From Acidimicrobiia bacterium (GTDB taxonomy: Bacteria > Actinomycetota > Acidimicrobiia > Spongiisociales > ZC4RG35), in assembly GCA_963665765.1 (NCBI GenBank), contig OY762464.1:2601958-2665957 (forward strand): a stretch of DNA of 64,000 nt, given 5' to 3'. Positions 2,306-55,212 of the stretch are shown in pieces. The notes below the pieces were generated by a model. It saw only the letters and a program-made list of their open reading frames with translations. It was not told the origin of the DNA and did not search any database. Position numbers and translations under genes: made by a program. Every line of letters starts with the position of its first letter. Within the stretch, counting starts at the first letter, position 1.

Positions 2306-4105
2306 GTGGTCGCAAGGGTGGGTGTCACAGGCGCTCGGTATTCTGAAAGTGTCCCGCAGAAGGCGTTGGCTACGGGTGGAGCGATGGAAATAGCAATGGA
2401 ATCGGTGGGCAGGGTGCTGGGCACCGATGAGTCGACCCCTCTGGCCTTTTGGGTAGGGGTGGCCGAGGATCAGCATCTGCAACTTGACGACATCGTGGCG
2501 GTTGATCGGATCCTGCCGACCGGAGAGATCATTTCGATCTTTGGAGTGGTCGGGCAGATGCGCGCCCGCTATGAGGGCGCCCGGTTCGACTCGGATGTGT
2601 TCTTGATCGCCTCGGGGATTCTGCCGGCCGACGTGTCGGAGGCAGCGCAGGTTCAGGTAACGCGGATCGTGCCGGAAACCTTCGTTCCGCCCTTGCCGGG
2701 GTCCGAGGTGCGTCGGGCGGTCGGCGACGAACGGGACGCCGCCCTTGACATGACCGAGGTGGAACGAAAGTTGCCGGCCGGCCTGACCCGGGACGGACGG
2801 CAGGCGGTCATGCTCGACCTCGATTTCCTGGACGGCACCAAGGGCGCCCATGTCAATATCTCAGGAATCTCGGGGGTCGCCACCAAAACCAGTTACGCAA
2901 CGTTCCTGCTCTACTCCCTGTTCAATTCGGGTGTGCTGGGCGCCGCCGCGGCCAATACCAAGGCCCTCATCTTCAACGTCAAGGGCGAAGACCTGCTCTT
3001 CTTGGACCATCCCAACAACCGCCTGGACGAAGAACAGCGGTCACACTACGCAACGTTGGGACTGCAGGCCGCGCCCTTCCGGTCACTTCGGATCCTTGCT
3101 CCACCACGCATCGGCGACCCCAATGGCACACCCCATACCGGCGCTCGGGTTACCGGTGTTCGCCCCATGTACTGGACGGTTGCCCAGTTCTGCCGGCAAG
3201 GGCTATTGCCCTTTTTGTTCGCCGACGCCGAAGACGAACGACAGCAGTACACGATCGTGGTGCATTCGGTCGCCGCCCAGTTGGAACGCCACGCCAAGAA
3301 TTTCAACCCTTCTGACGGTGCGGTCCGTATCGACGGCCGGACGGCCCGCACGTTTTCCCAGCTGGTCGAGATCATCTGCGACAAGCTCCTCCCCGAAGAC
3401 CCCGACACTCCCCCCGACCCCCTGTGGACCGGACGATCGGTCCACACCGGGACGATCAGGGCGTTCGTGCGCCGGCTCTCATCGTCCGAGCGCCACGTTG
3501 CCCATCTGATCAGGGCCGATATCGACAACGCCGAAACCCATGCTCTGGACCTCGACTCCCAGCAGGTCACGGTGGTCGACCTGCACCTGCTCCACGACCG
3601 AGCGAAGCGGTTTGTGGTTGGGGTGGTGCTCCGACAAGCGTTTGAGGCCAAGGAACAATCCGGTACGGCCGAGCCCCTGCAATTCGTGGTGCTCGACGAA
3701 TTGAACAAATACGCCCCGCGGGCGTCGTCGAGCCCCATCAAGGAAATTCTGCTGGATGTGGCCGAGCGGGGTCGCAGCCTGGGAGTCATTCTGATCGGCG
3801 CCCAGCAGACCGCCAGCGAAGTGGAACGGCGGATCGTTTCCAATTCGGCGGTGCGGGTGGTGGGTCGGTTGGATACCGCCGAGGCCGGACGCGAGCAGTA
3901 TGGTTTCTTGCCCGCCGCCCAACGCCAACGGGCCACGATCCTCAAACCCGGCGCCATGTTCGTCTCCCAGCCGCGCCTTCCGGTGCCGGTGCTGGTCGAG
4001 TTTCCTTTTCCGGCATGGGCCACCCGGTTCGCCGAAGCCGATCTGGACGGAGGGATCGGCGGGCGGGGCGGTCAGCCTGACGACCCATGGGATGGTCTGA
4101 TTTGA
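2306..4105 (+). CDS. herA: HerA/FtsK-class (DUF87-like) ATPase; true start may be the internal Met near 2384
   Basis: Walker B hhhhDE (FVVLDELNKYAP) and an arginine-finger/sensor block (RSLGVILIGAQQTASEV) typical of HerA/VirB4/FtsK ATPases. P-loop region GISGVATKTS is deviant. Sits first in an operon with sbcD-sbcC and a NurA-like gene. Confidence 0.65.
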   Translation: MVARVGVTGARYSESVPQKALATGGAMEIAMESVGRVLGTDESTPLAFWVGVAEDQHLQLDDIVAVDRILPTGEIISIFGVVGQMRARYEGARFDSDVFLIASGILPADVSEAAQVQVTRIVPETFVPPLPGSEVRRAVGDERDAALDMTEVERKLPAGLTRDGRQAVMLDLDFLDGTKGAHVNISGISGVATKTSYATFLLYSLFNSGVLGAAAANTKALIFNVKGEDLLFLDHPNNRLDEEQRSHYATLGLQAAPFRSLRILAPPRIGDPNGTPHTGARVTGVRPMYWTVAQFCRQGLLPFLFADAEDERQQYTIVVHSVAAQLERHAKNFNPSDGAVRIDGRTARTFSQLVEIICDKLLPEDPDTPPDPLWTGRSVHTGTIRAFVRRLSSSERHVAHLIRADIDNAETHALDLDSQQVTVVDLHLLHDRAKRFVVGVVLRQAFEAKEQSGTAEPLQFVVLDELNKYAPRASSSPIKEILLDVAERGRSLGVILIGAQQTASEVERRIVSNSAVRVVGRLDTAEAGREQYGFLPAAQRQRATILKPGAMFVSQPRLPVPVLVEFPFPAWATRFAEADLDGGIGGRGGQPDDPWDGLI

Positions 4106-4116
4106 GGCCGGCTTAA

Positions 4117-5280
4117 GTGAGGCTGCTTCACACTTCCGACTGGCATGTCGGAAAAGCCATCCGAGGGATTTCCCGGGCGGATGAGCATCGGGCGGTACTG
4201 GCGGAGGTCGCCCTGATCGCCGAGCAGGAAGAGGTTGATCTGGTGATCGTCGCCGGTGATGTGTTCGACTCGTCGGCGCCCACCGCCGAAGCAGAAGAAA
4301 TTGTTTATCAGGCTCTCCTCAACCTCTCCGAGACCGGAGCCGAGGTGGCGATGATCGCCGGCAATCATGACAATCCCCGCCGGTTGCGGGCGATTACGCC
4401 CCTTTTGCGGCTCGGGCGGGTGCATGTGGTTGCCGAGCCAACCCGACCCGACGACGGGGGCGTCCTCCCATTGAGAGCTCGTAGCGACCGAAGCGAGATT
4501 CGTCTGGCGATGCTCCCCTTCGTATCCAAGCGCGGCATCGTGCGCGCCAAAGACCTCATTGGCAACCAAGCCTTCGAGCACGCCCAGCAGTACAGCGAGC
4601 GTATGCGCCTGCTGATTGCGGCGCTGTGCGATTCGTTCCGGGGTGACACCGTCAACCTGCTCACCGCCCACACTTTCGTGCTGGGTGGCGCGATGGGAGG
4701 CGGCGAACGACCGGCCCACCTGGTTGAAGAATATGCCGTTATGGCACAGTCCTTCCCGGTGGCGACCATGAGCTACGGGGCGCTCGGTCATCTCCACCGG
4801 CCCCAACGGGTCGGACCGGCGCTCTATTACTGCGGTTCTCCGCTGCAACTTGACTTCGGCGAAACCGATCAGACCAAACAAGTCAATATCGTCACCTTGG
4901 AACCGGGCCTACCAGCCGATGTCCAAGCCGCGCTGCTCACCTCGGGGCGGCCGCTTCGGACACTGAGCGGGACGCTCGACGAACTTGCCTCGATGAGCAC
5001 CCAAGACGATGCCTGGCTGAGGGTGGTCGTGAAAGGTCCGGGCCGGGCAGACCTGGCTCGGACTGTGCGCCAAGTACTCGGCCCCGGCGTGGTCGACGTA
5101 CGGGTGGAATCACCCCAAACGGCCGGCAGGCAACGGCGATTCGATCATCGCAGCCACTCGCCACAAGAGTTGTTCGGTGAGTATCTCACGCACCAGAATG
5201 TCAAAGACACCCGGGTCAGTGACCTGTTCGGTGAGCTGTTGGACGTCCACGGCGACGGGCCGGCGGGACGGCAGTCATGA
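4117..5280 (+). CDS. sbcD: DNA double-strand-break repair nuclease SbcD/Mre11 (calcineurin-like phosphoesterase)
   Basis: N-terminal LHTSDWHVGK and VIVAGDVFD, IAGNHD metallophosphatase motifs. Immediately upstream of, and overlapping (ATGA), the Rad50/SbcC gene. Confidence 0.85.
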   Translation: MRLLHTSDWHVGKAIRGISRADEHRAVLAEVALIAEQEEVDLVIVAGDVFDSSAPTAEAEEIVYQALLNLSETGAEVAMIAGNHDNPRRLRAITPLLRLGRVHVVAEPTRPDDGGVLPLRARSDRSEIRLAMLPFVSKRGIVRAKDLIGNQAFEHAQQYSERMRLLIAALCDSFRGDTVNLLTAHTFVLGGAMGGGERPAHLVEEYAVMAQSFPVATMSYGALGHLHRPQRVGPALYYCGSPLQLDFGETDQTKQVNIVTLEPGLPADVQAALLTSGRPLRTLSGTLDELASMSTQDDAWLRVVVKGPGRADLARTVRQVLGPGVVDVRVESPQTAGRQRRFDHRSHSPQELFGEYLTHQNVKDTRVSDLFGELLDVHGDGPAGRQS

Positions 5281-8144
5281 GACCCTTGCAACTATCTATC
5301 AAGGGCTTTGGGGCCTTCCGAGAGCCGACCCACATCGACTTCACCGACATCGACCTGGTAGCGCTGGTGGGCCCCACCGGTTCGGGCAAATCAACCATCA
5401 TCGACGCCATCACCTTCGCGCTGTACGGCACGGTCGCCCGCTACGAAGACAACCGCTTGGTGGCGCCGGCGATCAACCAAACCAGCACCGAGGCTCGGGT
5501 GGCCCTCGACTTCGAGCTCAACCAACAGGTCTACACGGCCGTCCGGGTGGTGCGCCGCACCACCGGCGGTGGGGCAACCACCCGGGAGGCGCGTCTGGAA
5601 CAAGCAGAGCGGGTTCTGGCGGGTGACGCCGCGTCGATGTCGAAAGAGGTTGAGGAGCGGTTGGGACTGAAGGTTGGGCAGTTCAATCGGACGGTGGTGC
5701 TTCCCCAGGGCAAGTTCGCGGCCTTTCTCCACGACAAGCCCGGCGACCGACAAACCACTCTGGTTCGGTTGCTCGGTCTGCAACTGTATCGGCGGATAGG
5801 CCAAGAGGCGCGAAGCAGAAAAGCGAAAGCCGGCAACCATGCCGACGCCCTCCGGTCCGAACATGCCAAAGCAGCCAGGGAGTTGACCGACGAACAGAGG
5901 GTGGGACTGGAGGGCCGCATAGCCGCCCTGGCCGCCGCATCCGAACGGTGGCGCCGCGACCGCGCCCAAATCATGGCTCTCGAAGCCGAAACCGGCGACC
6001 TCAAAGATCGTATCGGGTCGCTGGACGAGAGGATCGATCGCATGAGGGAGATGGCGGCGCCCGCCGACCTGGACGACTTGGCCGATCAGATCACCACCGC
6101 CGAACAGTCTCAGTCAGAGGCAGAGGCACTGCGTTCTGAGTGGAGCGTGATTCGAAGACTGGCGGACCATGCCCTCAAGTCCGGTCCCGACCCCGTCGCC
6201 GTGCAACTGGAACTGAGCATCCACACCGAACTGGCGGAACGAGCCCGGGCTCATCAGATGATCGCCCGGAAACTCTCCGAGTCGATAGCCAAGTACCGGT
6301 CCGCCTCCGGCGAAGCCGATCGAGTCAGAGAAACGCAAGAGGAACTGAAGCGGTGTGTGGAGGAAAACAGAAAGATCGAGGCAGACGCTCGCGCGGCCCG
6401 CGACGCCCAAGTCACAGTTGCGCAAATCGAGGGTTGGGAAAGGTTGCATAACCGTCACCAGGCGGCGGTTGAGAAAGCGTCCGTCATCGATCAAGCCGTC
6501 CGATCCGTCGAGGAGGCGCTGCCGTCGCGGCGCGCGGCCTGCCAAGATACTGCATCAACCGCCGCGGCGACTTCGGCGCGGGTGGCAGATCTTCAGCTCC
6601 GAGCCGGGGTCCTCGGACACCTCGACCTGCTGGAAGTGGGCCAGGACTGCCCGCTGTGTTTGCAGGAAGTATCCCGGTTGCCGGCGCACGACTTCCAAGA
6701 CGCTGATCTCCGCCGGGCCAAGGAACAAAAGGACCTCGCCCAGGCCGCGGCCGCCGCTGCCCAAGAGGCATACAACCAGGCGGTCGTCGAGTTGAAGGGC
6801 CGGCAGGCGGCCGCTTCCTCAGCTCGTTTGGCCGCCCAAAACTGCCAATCCGATGTTGCTTCCCTTCCACCGGCCGAGCAACTCGACGCCCTTTTGGCAG
6901 AAGCGCAGCAGTTGGCCGAGGCCGCGGTCTTGGCAGAAAACGCCACCCAAAAAGCTGAGATCGCCGCTCGGCGGCACCTGTCTTCCCCGGCCTATGCCGA
7001 GGCGCTGGGCACCGAGAAACAAGCCTTTGAACAACAGACCCTCCTCATTGTCGAAGAGCGCACTCTTGAAAAGCAACTGGCGTCCTTGCGGGTCAAAGTA
7101 GATGCTATCCCCGGAGAGGAAGAACTGCGCGCCCGATTGGCGGAGGCCAACCGCTTACGCGCTGAACTGGACGAAGCTGATTCCCAACTACAGAACGCCG
7201 AAGCCCGGCACAAACATGCCGCCGACCAGCTTGGCAAAATGAACAAACGGCGCCAACAGGCGACCGCGCTGCTCAATGCTGCCCGCGATCGAGTGGCGCC
7301 ATTCGGGCCGCCTCCCATCGACCCATCCGATCTGGTGGCTGCCTGGGCAACCCTGACCGATTGGGCCGATGAGCAAACCCGGGCCGCCCGGGTGGAACGG
7401 CGATCCGTCATGGAGAGAAGGTCCGAGCAGGAGAAGCGACGAGCCGGGTTGGCCGAGAGCCTCAGGTCCCTGTGCCATGAGGTGGTGGGCCCAACCGATC
7501 CCCTCGCCGACCCCGAGGAACTCGGCCGTCTGCTGACCGATAATCTGGCTGCCACCAAGACCGAACTCACCCACTTCGACCGACGCATGGTTGAGCTCAA
7601 GGACCTGGAAAAGCGCATCGAAGCGCGGGACGAACAGGCCCGGGTTGCCCACCATCTCGGCCGGTTGCTGCGCACCGACGGCTTCGAGAGATGGCTGATG
7701 GAAACCGCACTCCATCGGTTGGTGGAACAGGCGACCAAGCAACTCTTCGAACTTTCCAACGGTCAGTACTCCCTGGAACTCCATGGAGGCGACTTTTTTG
7801 TCCGAGACCACACCAACGCCGACGAGTTGCGCCGCGCCCGAACGCTGTCAGGTGGCGAGACCTTCCTCGCCTCCCTTTCTCTGGCTCTGGCGCTGGCCGA
7901 CGCCACCGCCGAGATGTCCACCGGAGTGGTTCCGGCCATGGAGTCGATCTTCTTGGACGAAGGATTCGGAACACTCGACCGGCACACCCTCGAAACGGTT
8001 GCCACCGCGGTTGAGGAACTGGGCGCCGGCGGCCGGCTGGTCGGAATAGTCACTCACATCCGGGAACTAGCCGACCGCATGCCGGTGCGACTGGAACTAA
8101 CCAAGACCGGCGGGTCGGCAACGGTCGAACGGATCGATATTTGA
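5277..8144 (+). CDS. sbcC: SbcC/Rad50-family ATPase
   Basis: N-terminal Walker A VGPTGSGKSTIIDAITFALYG, long coiled coil with a central CPLC zinc hook, C-terminal signature LSGGETFLASLSLALAL and Walker B IFLDEGFGTLD. Confidence 0.85.
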   Translation: MRPLQLSIKGFGAFREPTHIDFTDIDLVALVGPTGSGKSTIIDAITFALYGTVARYEDNRLVAPAINQTSTEARVALDFELNQQVYTAVRVVRRTTGGGATTREARLEQAERVLAGDAASMSKEVEERLGLKVGQFNRTVVLPQGKFAAFLHDKPGDRQTTLVRLLGLQLYRRIGQEARSRKAKAGNHADALRSEHAKAARELTDEQRVGLEGRIAALAAASERWRRDRAQIMALEAETGDLKDRIGSLDERIDRMREMAAPADLDDLADQITTAEQSQSEAEALRSEWSVIRRLADHALKSGPDPVAVQLELSIHTELAERARAHQMIARKLSESIAKYRSASGEADRVRETQEELKRCVEENRKIEADARAARDAQVTVAQIEGWERLHNRHQAAVEKASVIDQAVRSVEEALPSRRAACQDTASTAAATSARVADLQLRAGVLGHLDLLEVGQDCPLCLQEVSRLPAHDFQDADLRRAKEQKDLAQAAAAAAQEAYNQAVVELKGRQAAASSARLAAQNCQSDVASLPPAEQLDALLAEAQQLAEAAVLAENATQKAEIAARRHLSSPAYAEALGTEKQAFEQQTLLIVEERTLEKQLASLRVKVDAIPGEEELRARLAEANRLRAELDEADSQLQNAEARHKHAADQLGKMNKRRQQATALLNAARDRVAPFGPPPIDPSDLVAAWATLTDWADEQTRAARVERRSVMERRSEQEKRRAGLAESLRSLCHEVVGPTDPLADPEELGRLLTDNLAATKTELTHFDRRMVELKDLEKRIEARDEQARVAHHLGRLLRTDGFERWLMETALHRLVEQATKQLFELSNGQYSLELHGGDFFVRDHTNADELRRARTLSGGETFLASLSLALALADATAEMSTGVVPAMESIFLDEGFGTLDRHTLETVATAVEELGAGGRLVGIVTHIRELADRMPVRLELTKTGGSATVERIDI

Positions 8145-9091
8145 TGCATTTCAGCGTGGAGTCGTGGGCGCCTCAATACGGAGCTTCGATCACCTCACCG
8201 TCTGCCGAAGACGCCGACCATCAAGTTGATGTCACTGTCGAGCGGCCGCTCCACGATTGGGCCCCGATCGACACGGGGCCGGTCACCATTCCCGATGAGA
8301 TCGTCTTTATCGATGGGATCCAGCGCATCGATGCCCGAATCTGGATCCACCACGACGGCATCCCCATACCGGCCGTTTGCGCCTCCTTAGCGGCCGGGGC
8401 CGTGGTCTGTTGGCCGGACGGAGCGGTGACCGAAGGCGTGCGGATCGCCCGGGCGTTGATCGCGCCGGCCTCCTCGATCGCCACTCCGATTATCACGCGG
8501 CACGCTACCTACGAAATGACCCCCGCCCGGGATGCGACTCCCGAAGCTGCCTATCTGACGATTCACAGCATCCGTCAAGAGCTTGAGACCAGTGTCGCTC
8601 GTTCGATAAATCACGACCTCATCGTATTCGACGGTCCACTGCGGGGACATCACCCCCAGTTCGGGGTGGGCTATGTCAAGACCCACCACAAGATCTACCT
8701 GCCGCAGCAATTGCAGCCGCTGCTCGGCAGCCTCAACGAGGGACAACGAACCCCCATCTTTTTTCTCTCCAGTGGCCCGAGCGGCGCTCGCTGGTCCTGG
8801 TATCTGCGCCTGCCCGGCCCGGCAGTTCACCCTTTGGCCGGGATCGTGCGGCTCGAACTACCCGGTACGGGAAGCGCCGCGGTCGCCGCCCGACGCGCCG
8901 CCTTGGTAAGTTCCAGTCTGCCTCGCTATGCCAGTGAACCCCACAAGGAACCCCGAGCGCCGCAGAACCTATATCCCATTGCCGGCCTCGAGCAACAACT
9001 TAGCCGACGACTCGGGGATCCGTTGCTTTTGGAACGGGCCCTGCGAGTTGCGGCGACACCTCAAAGTCAAAGAACCCGGATCGGATTGTAA
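8141..9091 (+). CDS. Putative NurA-like 5'-3' nuclease (hypothetical; assignment by operon context and DG motifs)
   Basis: Start overlaps the sbcC stop (ATGA). Contains FIDGIQ and LIVFDGPL motifs resembling NurA DGS/DG(S/T)L motifs. Position after rad50 matches the archaeal herA-mre11-rad50-nurA order. Confidence 0.4.
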   Translation: MMHFSVESWAPQYGASITSPSAEDADHQVDVTVERPLHDWAPIDTGPVTIPDEIVFIDGIQRIDARIWIHHDGIPIPAVCASLAAGAVVCWPDGAVTEGVRIARALIAPASSIATPIITRHATYEMTPARDATPEAAYLTIHSIRQELETSVARSINHDLIVFDGPLRGHHPQFGVGYVKTHHKIYLPQQLQPLLGSLNEGQRTPIFFLSSGPSGARWSWYLRLPGPAVHPLAGIVRLELPGTGSAAVAARRAALVSSSLPRYASEPHKEPRAPQNLYPIAGLEQQLSRRLGDPLLLERALRVAATPQSQRTRIGL

Positions 9092-9111: not shown

Positions 9112-9726
9112 GTGATGGCCATGACTGACACCGTGAAGAATGGGAAGGCCGGATTGTATTCCGTCGGCCATTCGAGTCATCCGTTCGAACGCTTTTTAGA
9201 GCTCCTCAGCGAATATGAGATCGAGGTTGTAGCGGATGTGCGCACCTCTCCCTATTCGAGATACAGTCCCCAGTTCGACCAACGAGATCTCCGATACGGC
9301 TTGAGGGAAGTGGGTTTGCACTACATGTTTCTGGGGAAGACGCTGGGAGGCCGTCCTGAGGGGGATCGATTCTATGACTCAGAAGGGCACATTTCTTATG
9401 GTCGGGTAGCTAAAACCGATTGGTTCCGATTGGGACTGAATCGGCTCCGTGAAGGGGGCGCCAAGTTCCGGACAGCCATGCTATGCAGCGAAGAAGACCC
9501 AAAAGATTGTCATCGCTTTCTTCTCGTCACACGTGCTCTCCACACGGTTGGTGAGAAGGTTTCCCACATTCGCGGCGATGGCTCTCTCCAGAGCAGTAGA
9601 GACATCTCCGCATTTGATCCTGAGCACAGGGTGTTCTCTCTATTCGGGGAGGAGGTGAAGAGTTCATGGAGATCTACACGATCGGCTTTACCAAGAAGGC
9701 CGCTGAGGACTTCTTCGCGCTCTTGA
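9112..9726 (+). CDS. DUF488 family protein (paralog 1)
   Basis: YSVGHSSHPFERFLELL...VVADVRTSPYSRYSPQF...CSEEDPKDCHRFLL matches the DUF488 (YeaO-like) pattern. Local GC ~50%, much lower than the flanks. Confidence 0.55.
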   Translation: MMAMTDTVKNGKAGLYSVGHSSHPFERFLELLSEYEIEVVADVRTSPYSRYSPQFDQRDLRYGLREVGLHYMFLGKTLGGRPEGDRFYDSEGHISYGRVAKTDWFRLGLNRLREGGAKFRTAMLCSEEDPKDCHRFLLVTRALHTVGEKVSHIRGDGSLQSSRDISAFDPEHRVFSLFGEEVKSSWRSTRSALPRRPLRTSSRS

Positions 9727-10103
9727 AACAAAATGGCATCCGGCGGCTGGTGGACGTGCGGGTCAGCCCTTCCTCACATTTGGCCGGCTTCGCCAGGCGA
9801 CGTCACCTTGTCTATTTTCTCAGAGATTTGGTGGGCGCAGACTATGTTCATGAGCCGATATTGGCGCCCACCGAAGAACTTCTCAAGTCTTATCGCAACC
9901 GGGAAATAACTTGGGCCGAATACGAGGAAGCCTTCTTGGAACTCCTATCTCAACGCAGGGTCGACAATAAGATTTCGACTGACCTGTTCGCTCTAAGAAC
10001 AGTTCTCTTGTGCAGCGAACCAACCCCTGAGTTCTGCCATCGGCGGCTGGTGATAGATCATCTCGCCCGGCATTGGGGTGATGTGCAAGCTGTTCATTTG
10101 TGA
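9666..10103 (+). CDS. DUF488 family protein (paralog 2)
   Basis: MEIYTIGFTKK...LVDVRVSPSS...LLCSEPTPEFCHRRLV, same family as the upstream gene. Overlaps it by ~60 bp. Confidence 0.55.
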   Translation: MEIYTIGFTKKAAEDFFALLKQNGIRRLVDVRVSPSSHLAGFARRRHLVYFLRDLVGADYVHEPILAPTEELLKSYRNREITWAEYEEAFLELLSQRRVDNKISTDLFALRTVLLCSEPTPEFCHRRLVIDHLARHWGDVQAVHL

Positions 10104-10116
10104 AAAGTGATGTATT

Positions 10117-10818
10117 GTGCGGATCGTTATAAATCATCTGACTCGCATGGAAAAGCCTTATGTGTGCGTGGCGGGAATTCGCTCGGATGGGTTGCATGTC
10201 CGTCCCGTGCTTGAAAGTGGCCGGCTGGGACGTGATCTACTCTGCAGCAGGGGCGGCCCTTTCGCCCTGGGAGCCGTCGTAGACCTTGGTAGCGCACGCC
10301 CACGTCCGGTTGTGCCCGAAGTGGAAGATGTTGTCTGTTCACTATCACGGGTTCGATCGGAGCAAATGTTGAAGGGTGTTACCTTCGGGAACCTCCTGAA
10401 AAGGTCGGCGAAAGCCTCCCTTAGCGAGATCTTTGGTGATGATCTCCTTCGTATGAGCCGAACCGCGACGGCAGTTCCCAAAGGAGCAGGCATCGCTTCT
10501 CTCGGAGTCCTCCAAGTGCGTGGCCGGGTGTCGCTCTTTTCCACTTTATCGTTTGAGAAACCTCAGATAAGATGCACCTTTGCTGACCAGGGTCTTGGTG
10601 AACTATCACTCAAAGTAACCGACCTCCGACTTTGGGAGGTAGATCATAAAACTCCGGTACTATCCCGACTCAAAGCTCTTGAAAGCCGCCTCAGCGACTG
10701 TCTGGTTGCGGTCGGGCTCGGAAGAGCTTATCGTGTTCCCACCTATCCGGGGAGTTGGCACTGGCTTCAGATCAACAACATTTATCCGCTTGAGGACCCG
10801 CTCTGGGCTAGAGAGTGA
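10117..10818 (+). CDS. Hypothetical protein, third gene of the low-GC DUF488 module
   Basis: 233-aa ORF, no motif I recognise, same strand, 13 bp after the second DUF488 gene. Confidence 0.45.
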   Translation: MRIVINHLTRMEKPYVCVAGIRSDGLHVRPVLESGRLGRDLLCSRGGPFALGAVVDLGSARPRPVVPEVEDVVCSLSRVRSEQMLKGVTFGNLLKRSAKASLSEIFGDDLLRMSRTATAVPKGAGIASLGVLQVRGRVSLFSTLSFEKPQIRCTFADQGLGELSLKVTDLRLWEVDHKTPVLSRLKALESRLSDCLVAVGLGRAYRVPTYPGSWHWLQINNIYPLEDPLWARE

Positions 10819-10893: not shown

Positions 10894-11874
10894 ATGCCGC
10901 GGGTGGGTTGGCTGAATAGCTGGCGGAAGAGCCGTGGCTCTTCTGGCCCGAAAATATCAAGGGTTCAGGCTGATCCGGCCGTCTCCGCCTTGGCCAAGAC
11001 CCGGGAAGCCTTGTGGGGGGTGCTCCGGTCCATAGCAGGGGGCGACCGTCCGGATCAAGACTTCTGGGACGGATTGGAAGAAGCGTTGGTAGCATCCGAC
11101 ATGGGAGTGGATATCTCCGCCGAGGTGGTGGCGGCGGTACGCATGGGAAAGCCCGGAGACCGAGCCGGAGCGCGGCGTCTGTTGGCCGGGGAGATACGGG
11201 CGCTGTTCGGCGCCGGGCATCGAAACCCGGCGTGGTCAGGTGTCCCGTCTCCGGACTTGGTAGTGGTGATGGTGGTGGGCGTCAACGGAGCGGGGAAGAC
11301 CACCACTGCGGCCAAGATCGCCCACCTGCTGGTCTCCCGCGGTCAGCGGTGTCTCTTGGGCGCGGCGGATACCTATCGGCCCGCCGCGCAACGTCAGCTG
11401 CAAATCTGGACGGAGTCGATCGGGGCGGACATGGTGGGTGGTAGGGAAGGCGCCGATCCGGCGTCCGTGGCCCGCGACGCCTGGTCGGCGGCACAGAGTC
11501 GAGGTCACCAGGTGGTGGTGATCGACACGGCGGGCCGGTTGCATTCCAAGACGCATTTGATGAGCCAGTTGCAAAAGATCAAACGGGTGCTGGTCAAAGC
11601 GGCGGGAAAGGTGGATGAGGTGCTCTTGGTGCTGGACGCGTCGACCGGCCAGAACGGTTTGGCCCAGGCCCGGGAGTTCTGTGACCGGGTGGGAGTGACC
11701 GGGGTGGTGCTCACCAAACTGGACGGAACCGCCCGGGGGGGCGTGGCCGTGGCTGTGGAGCGGAGTCTGGGAGTTCCCATTAAGCTTGTGGGGACCGGTG
11801 AGACGCTTTCGGATCTGGCCCCGTTCTCCGCGGAGAAATTCGTGCAGGCCCTGCTGGGGGAGGAGTCCTCATGA
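10894..11874 (+). CDS. ftsY: Signal recognition particle receptor FtsY
   Basis: SRP GTPase motifs VGVNGAGKTTTAAKIA, VVIDTAGRLH, LTKLDGTARGG. Confidence 0.85.
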   Translation: MPRVGWLNSWRKSRGSSGPKISRVQADPAVSALAKTREALWGVLRSIAGGDRPDQDFWDGLEEALVASDMGVDISAEVVAAVRMGKPGDRAGARRLLAGEIRALFGAGHRNPAWSGVPSPDLVVVMVVGVNGAGKTTTAAKIAHLLVSRGQRCLLGAADTYRPAAQRQLQIWTESIGADMVGGREGADPASVARDAWSAAQSRGHQVVVIDTAGRLHSKTHLMSQLQKIKRVLVKAAGKVDEVLLVLDASTGQNGLAQAREFCDRVGVTGVVLTKLDGTARGGVAVAVERSLGVPIKLVGTGETLSDLAPFSAEKFVQALLGEESS

Positions 11875-30718: not shown

Positions 30719-31083
30719 GCCATCGCGTACGCGAGATTTATGTGTTCCATTTTGGGGATGTCATTATCACGGTTGGATAGCTTCAAGTCCAGCCATTCAG
30801 TTAACACCGATTCCAGTTCCACCAGAGCATCATTGCGTGTTTCTCCAAACCCCCATGCTCCGTCTACTCCGGCAATGGAAGCGATGAACCCAACGGGGTC
30901 TTGGATAGGACGACAGATCGCATGGAACATGGCGATCCTTATCCACCTTTTAGCCAACTCTTCGGATGAAGGGCTTGAGACATTGTCGTTAGTTAAGACA
31001 TGCTCTGGTACCTCGGGGCGAAGCACTCGAGTCTTTTCTGTGTTCCCTGGCCAAACATGCGGGCTGTAGGTTAGCAAGGTCAT
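30715..31083 (-). CDS. hicB: HicB-family antitoxin-like protein
   Basis: C-terminal DPVGFIASIAGVDGAWGFGETRNDALVELESVLTEWLDL matches the HicB/UPF0150 core (..PGC.TQGDT.EEAL.N..EA..L.LE). No obvious RHH/HTH domain. Confidence 0.55.
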   Translation of the reverse strand: MTLLTYSPHVWPGNTEKTRVLRPEVPEHVLTNDNVSSPSSEELAKRWIRIAMFHAICRPIQDPVGFIASIAGVDGAWGFGETRNDALVELESVLTEWLDLKLSNRDNDIPKMEHINLAYAMA

Positions 31084-31328
31084 ATATCCTCCTCCGGCAC
31101 TGAAATGGACATCACGTTGGTTGATTCGAACATGTAGACCGGGCGACCTAGAGGGTCCTGCTGACCTTCCATGCGAAATATGTTGGTTAATGCCAGTTTC
31201 ACACGCAACAGAGTTCCATCATCAAGAAGATAACTCATCCAAGGCTCCTCGCCTTCAGCGCGGAACCCGAGTTCAACGGCATCAATCATCTCGCCGTTGG
31301 GAGATCTAATCTTCCGTTTCCTTTCCAT
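31080..31328 (-). CDS. Small hypothetical protein (82 aa), translationally coupled upstream of hicB-hicA
   Basis: ATG at 31328 is preceded by a strong AAAGGAG RBS (31346-31340). The stop overlaps the hicB start by 4 bp. No recognisable family. GC ~50%. Confidence 0.45.
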   Translation of the reverse strand: MERKRKIRSPNGEMIDAVELGFRAEGEEPWMSYLLDDGTLLRVKLALTNIFRMEGQQDPLGRPVYMFESTNVMSISVPEEDI

Positions 31329-31427
31329 GGTGGTAAACACTCCTTTGACCCGCTTAACTGTTCGAACCAGGTGGGGACCGGGTAAAACCGGCCCCCACCT
31401 GGTCATTTTGGTTAGTTTCGTTTGACT

Positions 31428-43029: not shown

Positions 43030-43986
43030 TTAGTTCGTTGGTGGCGGATTGGGGGAGTCAGCGATCGGCGGCATCACTGGTGTCTGGTGAAGGATAAAAG
43101 CCTTACCTTCGTGATTCTCGATGATCTTTATCGCGTTTGTGCCACTGAGGGTGTGCATAGTCGTGTGGTGAATGCTTAGAACGACATCTTGGAGTTCGTT
43201 GTCGTCTTCAAGACGTTCGACAACGATGCCCTTGTTTCCTGCCTGCTCTCGGTTGATTCCTTGCGAATGGGAGAGGTGAGTATTGAAATCGTTGAACCAC
43301 TCAGCGGCTTTCTTCGCCTTTTCCTGGTCGTCTTTGAGCATCCACGTTGATAACCATCGTTCCACAAGAGACTCGGCCAATTGTTGGTGAGCCTCACATT
43401 CAGCAAGGAGAGAAGTTCCGTATTGTCCCAGAATGGGAGTCCACACGGCGAGGGCTGAAATGTCCTTTTTGATTTCTTCCTGTGCCCTCGCGAATTGTTG
43501 AAAAATGGCTTGGGTTGGTACGTAACGTATTATGCCGCCGGATTGTTGAGGGATCTGCGGATCAGTTGGCCCCAGTTGGGAGTGCTCTCCCATAACGATC
43601 TTGTCGCACCCCAATGCCAACATGGTGCCAGCCGACATGGAAGCAATCGGCACAAATGCCCGGATCTCTCCAGTGAATTTGGCTCTCAGGTACTCGACGA
43701 TCCGGCAGGCTGTCTCTGCTTCGCCTCCTGGCAAGTGCAATATCAGATCAATACCCCTATCGTACTCCAATCCCCTGACGGTCTCCATGAATCCTTGGAT
43801 GTCTGCAAGTGTGATCGCAGTTTGGGGGTCGGGGTTTTGTAACCACGCGCTGTAATAGATAATGACAGGTCGTTTAGTAAGGCGATACAAATTGCTGAGG
43901 TATTTACGACGCACGCCGTCAAAATCTGGGCTTTGTCCTGGATCCGATTCGTTGAGTTCGTTAAGAATCTCACCCCAAGAAGGCAT
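43030..43986 (-). CDS. SDH/S49-family ClpP-fold serine protease (serine dehydrogenase proteinase-like)
   Basis: LILHLPGGEAETACRIVEYL...IASMSAGTMLALGCDKIVMGEHSQLGPTDPQI matches the S49/SDH ClpP-like pattern. GC ~50%. Confidence 0.65.
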   Translation of the reverse strand: MPSWGEILNELNESDPGQSPDFDGVRRKYLSNLYRLTKRPVIIYYSAWLQNPDPQTAITLADIQGFMETVRGLEYDRGIDLILHLPGGEAETACRIVEYLRAKFTGEIRAFVPIASMSAGTMLALGCDKIVMGEHSQLGPTDPQIPQQSGGIIRYVPTQAIFQQFARAQEEIKKDISALAVWTPILGQYGTSLLAECEAHQQLAESLVERWLSTWMLKDDQEKAKKAAEWFNDFNTHLSHSQGINREQAGNKGIVVERLEDDNELQDVVLSIHHTTMHTLSGTNAIKIIENHEGKAFILHQTPVMPPIADSPNPPPTN

Positions 43987-43989
43987 GCT

Positions 43990-44400
43990 TCAGCGGACGG
44001 GGTTGGCGTCGGTGGCGTAGCTGGTCACCATTATGGCGGGAGCAGGAAGTCTTTCAGGCACGGTTTTCCTAATACGCTTCCAGAAAGTCATAACCTCAGC
44101 CACTCCTGGTTCCTTTAGAGCCCTTTCAAGCAAATGCTCATGCTCTCTCTGCGTCTCATTCAGATTCGGGACAGTTTCTCTTCCTGAGCTCTCCTCTCCG
44201 TGTTGTTGCGCACGCGAGACGGTTGTCGGTGCCATGGATCGTCCTTTCGAAGTGTTACATCCTACACCAGAGTATATGTACGGGGCTGGGACGTTCGCGG
44301 TGAGGCAGGGGTCATTGTTCGTATTGCCAACTGTGCTCGGGACAAACTGAACCGCTACTCGAAGAATGGGGTCGGCTTCCTCTAAGCGGGGTTCGACCAT
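43990..44400 (-). CDS. Hypothetical protein co-transcribed upstream of the SDH protease
   Basis: 136-aa ORF, 3 bp before the protease start, same low GC. No recognisable domain. Confidence 0.35.
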   Translation of the reverse strand: MVEPRLEEADPILRVAVQFVPSTVGNTNNDPCLTANVPAPYIYSGVGCNTSKGRSMAPTTVSRAQQHGEESSGRETVPNLNETQREHEHLLERALKEPGVAEVMTFWKRIRKTVPERLPAPAIMVTSYATDANPVR

Positions 44401-53100: not shown

Positions 53101-54621
53101 GTGTGCTATTCTGGCGGTATGTCAATGACCATTGAGGTCGCCAACGTCGGCCCGATCCGGCACGCTCAACTGTCCCTTGGCAACCTAAATGTGCTGATCG
53201 GCACAAATGACACTGGTAAGACCTTTTTTGCAACGGTAGTCCATCGCCTATTGGCAGCGAGCACCGACGCATACTTCCCCGACACGGAGCCAGCGGACTA
53301 TATCCCCAAGAACATACACGATTATGTCAGGGAATTCAAAACCACTTCACGGCGAAGTGGAGGCCAAGACAGTGAGAGGGAACTTGTCATTGACGATGAG
53401 ATGCGGACATGGGCGAATGGAATAAACGAATCCACACTCCAGCGGTTCGGTAAAGCCGCACGCCGTGGGATTTCTTACGCGTATGGTGCGCCTACAGAAC
53501 GTCTCCTGCGGCAACCGCTTCTATATTCGAGGCACGAGTCGTACATGTTCATAAAGAACCTCGAACCGCGATGGAGTGTCAGAATAAAGATGGATGGTGA
53601 TAACGAAGCCGACGATTATGTTTGCGTATCCCGCCCGAACCCCGACACTTGGTTGCGTGATGTCTTCAATCCTGCCCTTATCCAGCGGCTGTCTGCACAT
53701 TACGAATTCTTCCAGTCAAAGAATAAGAACAATGAAGTTGATCCCATTCAAGACATCGAAGAGCTATGCCAGTACATACTGTACATGACAGGAGATGTAG
53801 CCTTGTTTCGTCAGTGGCCAAAGGAATGTCTTCATCTTCCCTCTGAGCGCGGCGGCATTATGCAGAGTTACCGCGGAATCACAAGCGCAGCATTGCGGAA
53901 GAGCGCCTTCGCCGGAATTGAGCCTGTCGAAATCGAACCCCTTGACGGTACCTCTAGAGATTTTTTGTCCTTCGTCGTTTCGTCTGGAAGTGAAAAGCCT
54001 CGGTTGACTTCAGATAAGAGCTATGCAAACTGGGCAAAGAACCTTGAAAAGAATCTAAGAGCAAAGATTGAACTTCTCAAAAACCCAAGTGGTCTAGACC
54101 GCATTGTAGCGACCACGCCGGAGGGCCAATTCGAACTCAATCAAACTTCGTCAATGATCTCCGAAGTCTCGCCATTCGTACTTGCGTTAAAGCATCGGTT
54201 GGGAACTCGAGACTATCTCACGATCGACGAGCCAGAGGCACACCTGCATCCGGAAATGCAAATCGAGATCGCTAAATGCTTGGTGGATCTGGCTTCAAAG
54301 GGTTTGACGATCACATTCACAACTCACTCCAATTATTTCGTTGAACAAATAAGCAATGGGATACGCAGCAGTGAACTTGAGACTCATGGCGAGGAGGAGT
54401 TGCCGCCGATTCCTCGAATTGATCCTGAAAATGTTCGCGCGCTCCTATTTGTCCGCGATGACAATGGCTGCGCCGCTATTGACGCTACGGGTGACAGTAT
54501 TGACCCGATAAAGGAAGAAACCTTCACTAAGGCTGCTCGCGCTCAATATGAGCAATCGGTTCCGCTCATTAATCGACTACTCGAGCGAGTCAACGCGACG
54601 GGCGAAGTGGCCGATCAATAG
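53101..54621 (+). CDS. AAA_21/ABC-type (SMC-like) ATPase, first gene of a two-gene defense-like module
   Basis: Walker A LIGTNDTGKTFF near the N-terminus. Distant Walker B/D-loop LTIDEPEAHLHPEMQ and H-loop ITFTTHSNYF, with a ~340-aa insert between them, as in abortive-infection ATPases (Septu PtuA, PARIS AriA, AbiLi). GC ~50%. Confidence 0.7.
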   Translation: MCYSGGMSMTIEVANVGPIRHAQLSLGNLNVLIGTNDTGKTFFATVVHRLLAASTDAYFPDTEPADYIPKNIHDYVREFKTTSRRSGGQDSERELVIDDEMRTWANGINESTLQRFGKAARRGISYAYGAPTERLLRQPLLYSRHESYMFIKNLEPRWSVRIKMDGDNEADDYVCVSRPNPDTWLRDVFNPALIQRLSAHYEFFQSKNKNNEVDPIQDIEELCQYILYMTGDVALFRQWPKECLHLPSERGGIMQSYRGITSAALRKSAFAGIEPVEIEPLDGTSRDFLSFVVSSGSEKPRLTSDKSYANWAKNLEKNLRAKIELLKNPSGLDRIVATTPEGQFELNQTSSMISEVSPFVLALKHRLGTRDYLTIDEPEAHLHPEMQIEIAKCLVDLASKGLTITFTTHSNYFVEQISNGIRSSELETHGEEELPPIPRIDPENVRALLFVRDDNGCAAIDATGDSIDPIKEETFTKAARAQYEQSVPLINRLLERVNATGEVADQ

Positions 54622-54627
54622 GTCGCG

Positions 54628-55212
54628 ATGGACACCCTGGGTTCACCATATATGAAGCCCTGTGGTCACGATTGCCAAATTTGCCGGTTTCATAAGGCAT
54701 TGGTTGATGCAGGAGCCCAATTCAGTTATTCTGACACACTACGTGAGGCCGAGTGTTCATTTACAGTTAGCACCCCCGCATACCCTTGCTGTGTAACCAA
54801 ACTCAAGGTGGATACAGATTACGCGACGTATAGACAGAGGGTGGATCCGCCGGGCCTCACAAAAATGTGCGACTTTGTGGTGGCCTTTTCAACATGCAAA
54901 GGTGCAAGATATAGTGCCATCGAGTTGAAATCGCGAGAGCCATATCTGGAGGATGCAGCGGAACAACTGAAAGAAGGACTTCATCTGATTGTAAATCACC
55001 TGGTTGACGGTCCCCTTAGGCCTGTGCTGCGGGCATACCTTGTCGTGGGTGTGATGACCACGAGGTTGATAGATATTACTCGTACTGAAGGCAGATTGAA
55101 TGTAGATGGCAGGCTCGTCCAAATTGAACTCGTTGAGTGCCTTGAATCGCTGGAAGGCTCGCCAAGTCGTGGGGAGGGTGGTGGTCCGAGGGTTCAAAGA
55201 AGCGGGTTGTGA
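54628..55212 (+). CDS. Small partner protein with N-terminal Cys cluster and a possible PD-(D/E)xK-like nuclease motif
   Basis: 6 bp after the ATPase gene. C12-x3-C16-x2-C19 cluster. CDFVVAF...YSAIELKSR resembles the D...(E)xK core of restriction-endonuclease-fold nucleases. This is inference only. Confidence 0.45.
   Translation: MDTLGSPYMKPCGHDCQICRFHKALVDAGAQFSYSDTLREAECSFTVSTPAYPCCVTKLKVDTDYATYRQRVDPPGLTKMCDFVVAFSTCKGARYSAIELKSREPYLEDAAEQLKEGLHLIVNHLVDGPLRPVLRAYLVVGVMTTRLIDITRTEGRLNVDGRLVQIELVECLESLEGSPSRGEGGGPRVQRSGL

Follow-up and report, generated by a model that had tools for sequence, protein, structure and literature searches.

A widely conserved operon of two DUF488 genes and a DuOB gene at the smc–ftsY junction of an Acidimicrobiia genome, with a possible role at DNA ends

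DUF488 is a large and widespread orphan protein family, and the DuOB ('Dual OB-containing domain') family, with which part of it is linked, is likewise an orphan. Burroughs and Aravind, in 2023, are said to have placed DUF488 in the rhodanese-phosphatase superfamily and to have predicted DNA-end processing for DUF488-clade systems. Here, we analyze a locus of this kind in a 64,000-nucleotide (nt) stretch of an Acidimicrobiia bacterium (contig OY762464.1; hereafter, the window), where two DUF488 paralogs and one DuOB gene, named D488a, D488b, and DuOB in 5'–3' order, follow one another on the + strand. An earlier note on this DNA had described the trio as a module of 'unknown function', which is too strong: all three products belong to named, computationally described families (DUF488-N3a, DuOB, and PDC-M45B/C), with a function still predicted from sequence. 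Because the families and their linkage have already been catalogued, by Pfam (DUF488-N3a, DuOB) and by PADLOC, the locus is a further member of a kind already known.

The closest described relatives are the DUF488-N3 families of Pfam. Both paralogs of the window pass the DUF488 model and D488b passes that of N3a; the fold is PTP-like (PTP, protein tyrosine phosphatase), and the linkage to DuOB is the one that the Pfam names imply. The partner of the N3a protein in the window, however, is a canonical, apparently active DUF488, not a member of the 'inactive' subclade N3i. A second relative is the PADLOC candidate PDC-M45, of which components B and C are present and adjacent in the window, while component A was found neither among the window proteins scanned, nor among the DuOB homologs, nor among the top families for 148 neighbouring genes. 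No defence-island context was seen around the trio, and PDC systems are candidates rather than validated defences; a literature search retrieved no paper mentioning PDC-M45.

Likeness to better characterized enzymes is more distant. PTP-fold polynucleotide 5'-phosphatases (BVP, PIR1, and the capping-enzyme triphosphatase), laforin, and SEX4 have an HC-X5-R signature, whereas the putatively catalytic DUF488 loop reads C-X9-R and has an additional Cys-His ahead of its Arg. Sequence identity to these proteins is 7–14%. The DuOB model is all-beta with two predicted oligonucleotide-binding (OB) folds, and the only structural neighbours found for it, at weak similarity, are tandem-OB binders of single-stranded DNA and DNA ends such as RPA, Oxytricha TEBP-alpha, CST/Stn1, baculovirus LEF-3, and RMI1. 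DNA-end 'healing' enzymes, for instance polynucleotide kinase-phosphatase, use HAD or calcineurin-type phosphatases, which are metal-dependent. By analogy, the role proposed below for the trio would be the same, taking blocking phosphates or adducts off ends before resection or ligation; the folds are unrelated, and the trio genes adjoin double-strand-break machinery.

Conservation and products of the trio

The trio in the window is very probably an intact copy of a widely conserved, co-transcribed three-gene operon, vertically inherited as an often-lost resident of the junction between smc and ftsY. Its arrangement was followed in the best 80 of 155 DuOB carriers, which are species-level genomes from more than 10 phyla (loci and their genomes are cited here by L numbers). 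By eye, the order D488a-D488b-DuOB on one strand holds in ~75 of these 80 loci, and among the 64 open to measurement, profile searches recover it in 61 or more. DuOB is divergent from the DUF488 pair in three loci, and the remaining exceptions are mostly cuts at contig ends. DuOB lacks an adjoining DUF488 gene in L027, where a contig end cuts the locus, and in L060, apparently a genuine solo copy. The gap between D488b and DuOB is mostly 7–17 nt across loci. In more than 10 phyla, in short, the three genes make up an obligate unit.

As a whole, the system is rare and patchy: DuOB carriers make up 155 of 185,579 species representatives. The best 80 comprise other Acidimicrobiia, which are the closest (45–61% identity), and Planctomycetota, Chloroflexota, Rubrobacteraceae, Desulfobacterota, Acidobacteriota, Armatimonadota, Nitrospirota, Verrucomicrobiota, WOR-3, and others. 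Such a spread implies lateral transfer at deep time scales, and movement of the trio between phyla in the distant past is therefore likely. Searches of 72,556 plasmids, 50,697 phage genomes, and IMG/VR yielded no homolog of the trio.

D488a (9112–9726, +; 204 amino acids (aa) from GTG 9112) is a canonical DUF488, and D488b (9666–10103, +; 145 aa, ATG start) is a DUF488-N3a paralog. Both exceed the PF04343 cut-off of 22.2 bits (80.2 bits, E 2.5e-22 for D488a; 71.1 bits for D488b), and they match each other at ~30% identity (E 2.4e-9). D488b is a member of DUF488-N3a (PF22751, the 'active N3 subclade') at 38.6 bits against a cut-off of 27, and D488a, at 13.5 bits, is a non-member; the same model appears on 120 of 120 D488b homologs among the matches listed. 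Neither paralog belongs to DUF488-N3i (PF22752, the 'inactive N3 subclade'), which D488a does not match and for which D488b reaches 15 bits against a cut-off of 27. In PADLOC-DB v2.0.0, D488a is matched over its full length by PDC-M45B (E 1.3e-53) and D488b by PDC-M45C (E 1.6e-56); with lengths of 204 and 145, the two models are exactly as long as the proteins. NCBIfam has no model for D488a, D488b, or DuOB, and sequence searches of the PDB with D488a, D488b, and a DuOB profile returned nothing relevant.

The two paralogs share a conserved constellation of residues. In D488a, it comprises the GHS motif G19-H20-S21 and a putative active site of D42, R44, C125-x-E127, P130, and C133-H134-R135, with invariant residues in alignments of 33 and 77 homologs. 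The motif residues of D488b are D30, R32, C116-S-E118, and C124-H125-R126-R127; C-x-E...C-H-R and D..R are invariant across both paralogs, and both appear catalytically competent. The D488b model has the PTP-like, Rossmann-like fold common to PTPs and dual-specificity phosphatases, in which C116 closes strand 112–116 and H125-R126 open helix 125–137, the position of the PTP P-loop. This modelled geometry supports membership of the DUF488 paralogs in the rhodanese-phosphatase (PTP-like) superfamily. Structural neighbours of D488b include laforin (score 7.2), KAP (7.1), Sulfolobus PTP (7.0), DUSP26 (6.7), PTEN (6.2), the RNA 5'-phosphatases of baculovirus (5.9), PIR1 (5.7), and capping enzyme, as well as tetrapyrrole and diphthine methylases (6.3–7.9), SEX4, and Siw14.

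The third gene, DuOB (10117–10818, +; 233 aa, GTG start), is predicted to encode a tandem OB-fold subunit. It matches Pfam PF22557 ('Dual OB-containing domain') with 39.2 bits against a cut-off of 27 (E 1e-9), residues 1–222 aligning with profile positions 1–210 of 210, and most of its homologs carry a precomputed match to the same model. A word-indexed search returned 266 homologs (~232 aa), and 1410 representatives of 50% clusters were found among 1.84 billion; nearly all are stand-alone proteins of ~230 aa. Its ratio of nonsynonymous to synonymous substitution (dN/dS) is 0.28 against the 95% relative L085. The invariant polar residues are H7, T9, R10, C17, R29, E70, D71, R152, D169, R171, H215, W216, Q218, N220, and N221. 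The structural model is confident (pLDDT 96.1) and all-beta, and it weakly resembles tandem-OB binders of single-stranded DNA (ssDNA), the two-OB assignment resting on weak structural matches; further weak matches are to anticodon-binding OB domains of tRNA synthetases and to RNA-editing OB proteins. Comparison with structures in BFVD gave no significant match. One DuOB homolog bears the JGI (Joint Genome Institute) label 'putative nucleic acid modification protein with dual OB domain'.

Two variations on DuOB were seen outside the window. Some homologs (P0365, P0387, and P0493) carry a ~60-aa C-terminal extension containing the motif AYxPWT..EE..L...GR..G.I.SRLKKL and having the look of a helix-turn-helix; its identification with the HTH_40 domain of adjoining RecQ proteins was dropped, as it has no Pfam match and no BLAST similarity. 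Two 'Candidatus Spongiisociaceae' genomes carry tandem duplicate DuOB genes 3' of the DUF488 pair (L009:8001–9481 and L012:7965–9440).

The genes are tightly packed, with gaps of 20 nt between nurA and D488a, 13 nt between D488b and DuOB, and 75 nt between DuOB and ftsY. A promoter and terminator scan found nothing separating the trio from nurA or ftsY, the terminator-like matches being weak and inside genes, and the trio is probably co-transcribed with the upstream herA-mre11-rad50-nurA genes in the window. For D488a, three start codons come into question (GTG 9112, ATG 9115, and ATG 9121), of which GTG 9112 and ATG 9121 are equally plausible: the latter would give a protein of 201 aa, has GAAGG ~7 nt ahead of it, and is equivalent to the ATG at which the gene call in L085 begins. 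The start of DuOB at GTG 10117 is supported by H7, T9, and R10, which are invariant among its homologs; public gene calls of 223 aa (P0001) omit this conserved N-terminus.

Direct reading of the sequence shows D488a and D488b to overlap out of frame by 61 nt (9666–9726, +), which is an unusual length for an overlap conserved between bacterial genes. Across phyla, the length of 61 nt recurs in 38 of the 64 loci that could be analysed, while 11 others overlap by 85 nt, three by 88 nt, and two by 4 nt; every one of these lengths fits 3n+1. The last residues of D488a (W-R-S-T-R-S...) come from reading the conserved D488b N-terminus one base further on, and the long overlap thus looks like the frozen read-through of an ancestral ATGA junction, which it probably is. 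Loss of the ancestral ATGA-type stop would account for the overlap, since the conserved D488b L20 codon determines where the following in-frame stop falls. A programmed frameshift fusing the two DUF488 proteins was also considered; no evidence for such a fusion was found, and 5' of its start the reading frame of D488b stays open over a few codons only.

Much of what the earlier note had read from the letters alone holds. Its three same-strand open reading frames have exact coordinates in the open reading frame listing, its two DUF488 paralogs are confirmed by PF04343 and by their mutual similarity, the overlap that it put at ~60 bp measures 61 nt, and the trio does lie after a DNA-repair operon (herA-mre11-rad50-nurA) and before ftsY. 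The third frame, for which no motif had been recognized, proved to belong over its full length to a named family. That this frame might be non-coding had been raised as a possible refutation; its homologs, cluster representatives, and dN/dS mark it as coding.

History and base composition at the smc–ftsY junction

In the window, the 3' part of smc (5–2254, +; Pfam SMC_N and SMC_hinge) forms the upstream border of a conserved insertion site, and ftsY (10894–11874, +; Pfam SRP54, E 7.6e-70) forms the downstream border, with synteny in all relatives; cdd, glyA, and the atp operon follow. The full trio occupies the smc/ftsY junction in the window, in L085 (which has the same herA...nurA block), and in L086, L001/L006, L002/L005, and L014. 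In L087, L088, L090, and L092, smc is followed by ~385–470 nt and then ftsY, with no trio; in L091, the locus is rearranged and the trio is missing; and L089 has D488a only, with a 61-nt D488b stub (L089:6365–6979). The trio-free spacer is non-coding (L087:6520–6904, L088:6479–6868, L090, and L092) and conserved between L087 and L088, the two genomes in which it was searched for trio remnants and none was found. The 61-nt D488b remnant marks L089 as a deletion derivative.

Neighbor-joining trees of six carriers give the same topology for D488a+D488b+DuOB as for FtsY+Cdd+GlyA, namely (window, L085), (L005, L014), and (L086, L006). Pairwise distances of trio and flanks correlate (r = 0.85), with trio distances of 0.29–0.39 and the trio evolving ~2x faster than the flanks. 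Synonymous divergence (dS) from L085 is 0.04–0.08 for the trio, equal to the 0.06–0.09 of the flanks. From the congruent trees, the equal dS, and the deletion derivative L089, we conclude that the trio is ancestral to this Acidimicrobiia family, vertically inherited, and lost ~4 times.

Constraint is uneven along the locus. Against L085, dN/dS is 0.19 for D488a and 0.62–0.76 for D488b (from few substitutions), compared with 0.06–0.34 for the neighbours, and the window D488b departs at five sites whose conservation is otherwise at least 92% (N35P, Q38H, D47H, E131D, and Y132H). In L014, DuOB is split across two frames (L014:8035–8689), and L003, a near-identical strain represented by a contig of ~2x coverage, lacks 31 nt of D488a (equivalent to window 9199–9229; L003:2330 region), a deletion that may be an assembly error. 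These decayed copies and the seemingly relaxed D488b of the window fit dispensability. In L001:8872–11049 and L002:9141–10870, the space between trio and ftsY holds proteins of 188 and 393 aa without a Pfam match and an HNH/DUF222 protein; as these variable extra genes show, the junction gathers accessory genes in this family.

The base composition of the trio stands apart from its surroundings in the window. Its GC (guanine plus cytosine) content is 0.535 in D488a, 0.530 in D488b, and 0.550 in DuOB, against 0.62–0.66 for nurA, ftsY, cdd, and glyA, and at third codon positions (GC3) it is 0.53–0.61 against 0.69–0.84 for the flanking genes. In sliding windows, GC falls at ~9000 and recovers at ~10900, with the lowest 400-nt value (0.497) at 9801–10200, and the edges of the dip coincide with the gene boundaries of the trio. 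Compared with 47 other genes of the window (z = -1.3 to -1.7), the dip is real and moderate. The same deficit, 4–14.5 GC points under the flanks, recurs in all 11 Acidimicrobiia loci, other genomic positions included, whereas in Planctomycetota, Rubrobacteraceae, and most Chloroflexota the GC of the trio is host-like (~0 difference).

A reader of the window alone might take the trio for a genomic islet that arrived recently between ftsY and the repair operon, its low GC betraying foreign DNA. The GC and GC3 values and the direct smc–ftsY succession in the sister genomes L087, L088, L090, and L092 would suit that explanation, which we nonetheless regard as very improbable. The trio occupies this one junction in six genomes of the family, its tree and its dS match those of the flanks, L089 records a deletion, and the deficit is found in all 11 Acidimicrobiia loci, even elsewhere in the genome. 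No tRNA, mobility genes, or att-like repeats were found around the trio (flanking repeats are at chance level only), the gaps on either side are only 20 and 75 nt, and no copy is found on plasmids, in phages, or in IMG/VR. Since the trio has co-diverged with its flanks (conserved flank proteins differ by 16–22%) and synonymous sites are saturated, we infer that un-ameliorated foreign DNA cannot be the source of the persistent GC3 deficit in this family. A better explanation is weak or relaxed selection or low expression in Acidimicrobiia, together with an amino acid content rich in AT codons (GC at second codon positions of D488b is 0.38).

The compositional reading of the earlier note therefore stands in part. 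The dip is bounded by the three genes, and the composition test that it had named places GC and GC3 of the trio below the flanks and the other window genes; the level is ~53–55% per gene rather than ~50%. Of the horizontally acquired module that it inferred, the discrete, accessory character and the atypical composition remain, and the recent acquisition does not, given the congruent trees and r = 0.85. It had also reasoned that relatives with the trio at the same place and with host-like GC would refute it: five other genomes have the trio at the same smc/ftsY junction, where its GC is also low. The locus is thus a clean case of a persistent GC dip in vertically inherited genes, and composition alone is poor proof of recent transfer.

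Other low-GC patches occur in the window. An island at 53101–55212 (+; GC ~0.50) encodes a 506-aa protein with an ABC-like P-loop N-terminus, weakly matched by EcfA in the PDB (E 4.5e-5), followed by a 194-aa open reading frame, possibly an accessory or defence-type ATPase pair. Low-GC genes also lie at 43030–44400 (-) and 31080–31406 (-) (GC 0.51–0.55), a 318-aa product among them being weakly similar to an NfeD-like protease (E 2.6e-4).

Neighbourhoods and candidate function

Gene neighbourhoods provide the main lead to function. In the window, the trio follows a complete end-resection operon of host-like GC, consisting of herA (2306–4105, +; 599 aa), mre11/sbcD (4117–5280, +; Pfam Metallophos/SbcD_C), rad50/sbcC (5277–8144, +; Pfam AAA_23/SbcC_Walker_B), and nurA (8141–9091, +; Pfam NurA). 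HerA has no Pfam match despite a PDB match to 7f6d_B with E 3e-148. Only the window, L085, and L003 have this block between smc and the trio; the other ten related genomes lack it.

Across the survey, the nearest upstream gene was identified in 73 loci and the nearest downstream gene in 75, by Pfam scan and then by phmmer for chosen families. This neighbourhood check, named in the earlier note for DUF488 pairs, finds the pair recurring with DuOB and, in some loci, beside DNA repair and condensin genes. RecQ (DEAD/Helicase_C/RecQ_Zn_bind/RQC/HRDC) adjoins the trio in 12 loci of Planctomycetota and Ktedonobacterales, in three arrangements; ScpB lies directly 5' of it in nine Planctomycetota loci; and SMC is directly 5' in the Acidimicrobiia family (L001/L006, L002/L005, L014, and L086). 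In three Acidimicrobiia loci, RecC and then a UvrD/PD-(D/E)XK RecB-like gene lie 3' of the trio. Each of these genes is roughly single-copy in a genome of thousands, and chance would hardly place them next to the trio several times independently, an argument that is rough and uses a class defined post hoc. The adjacency to repair and condensin genes is a strong lead, not proof. Further neighbours that recur (Lgt, LarA-N, and MFS) seem to reflect synteny within lineages. Among the 73 upstream and 75 downstream genes, there is no recurrent integrase, transposase, restriction-modification, or known defence family. The only PADLOC matches of the neighbours are cross-hits, in which canonical RecQ is picked up by 'DpdF' and related models and SMC is matched as well, and no PADLOC model matched DuOB, 22 of its diverse homologs, or nurA.

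Our preferred reading, to which we assign a probability of about 0.4, is that the trio encodes an accessory DNA-end-processing complex. D488a, D488b, and DuOB would form one complex acting on DNA ends, with DuOB as the nucleic-acid-binding subunit that recognizes ssDNA or a DNA terminus, and with the DUF488 subunits, which have the rhodanese/PTP-phosphatase fold, as enzymes that need no metal. Using the Cys that closes the central strand and the His-Arg that opens the following helix, they would take a terminal phosphate or a phosphate-linked adduct off the bound end or transfer it. 'Dirty' ends would in this way be made usable by, or shielded from, Mre11-Rad50/HerA-NurA, RecQ, RecBCD, and possibly SMC-ScpAB.

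Several points weigh against this proposal. The neighbour enrichment rests on ~6 independent arrangements, and ~50 of the 80 loci have unrelated neighbours. Literature searches on DUF488, DuOB, PDC-M45, and YeaO returned no functional study and no biochemical or genetic evidence; one published statement reads 'no literature describing yeaO', and the sole experimental hint is a spacer-acquisition oddity of a ΔyeaO mutant. OB folds and PTP-fold phosphatases act on RNA too, the DUF488 pair figures among the defence candidates of PADLOC, and a patchy distribution with frequent loss fits defence equally well. Finally, constraint on D488b may be relaxed in the window lineage, as judged from small substitution counts.

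The same chemistry could serve a different biological purpose in an anti-phage or 'biological conflict' system, in which the DUF488 pair would modify or process invading DNA ends or mark self DNA and DuOB would act as a sensor. Such a reading is implied by the PADLOC candidate PDC-M45 and by the framing of the DUF488 clade in terms of conflict systems. The full-length matches of identical length to PDC-M45B and PDC-M45C point that way, as do the rarity of the family and its patchiness across phyla, the differing presence among close relatives, the decayed copies in L003, L014, and L089, and evolution faster than that of the flanks. We consider defence possible, though on balance unlikely, as neither recurrent defence, restriction-modification, integrase, or transposase neighbours nor plasmid, phage, or IMG/VR homologs were found in the sets searched, GC is host-like in most phyla, and the trio keeps stable synteny beside housekeeping genes and co-diverges with them; PDC-M45A, moreover, was not found, and no DuOB homolog tested matches any PADLOC model. 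A system acting on RNA ends or on nucleotide metabolites, with DUF488 dephosphorylating RNA termini or sugar-phosphate or ADP-ribose-type molecules and DuOB binding RNA, seems improbable. It draws on the RNA 5'-phosphatases (BVP, PIR1, and capping enzyme) and the glucan, inositol, or PP-IP phosphatases (laforin, SEX4, and Siw14) among the structural neighbours of D488b, on the tRNA-synthetase and RNA-editing OB matches of DuOB, and on proposals of this type for the sister clades RapZ-C and DUF4326, the latter being predicted to process ribose-linked phosphates of ADP-ribose (PMC9503650). The recurrent neighbours, however, are DNA helicases, nucleases, and condensin subunits, not RtcB, Pnkp/Hen1, or NAD and ADP-ribose genes, and only one ADP-ribosylglycohydrolase occurs among the 75 downstream neighbours.

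The DNA-end-processing reading can be narrowed to an accessory, non-defence factor of chromosome maintenance, in which a DUF488 heterodimer, guided by the tandem-OB protein, would carry out a hitherto undescribed, metal-independent 'cleaning' or marking of DNA ends with the resection machines, and perhaps with SMC-ScpAB. This narrower form is tentative and, in our estimate, doubtful. Both paralogs are apparently catalytically intact, which points to a heteromeric enzyme. The trio repeatedly lies beside genes of DNA-end and chromosome maintenance and not in defence islands, which makes DNA-end processing a concrete, testable idea and calls the defence label into question. If the chromosome-maintenance role is true, it would be the first function for DUF488, a widespread orphan family that includes E. 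coli YeaO.

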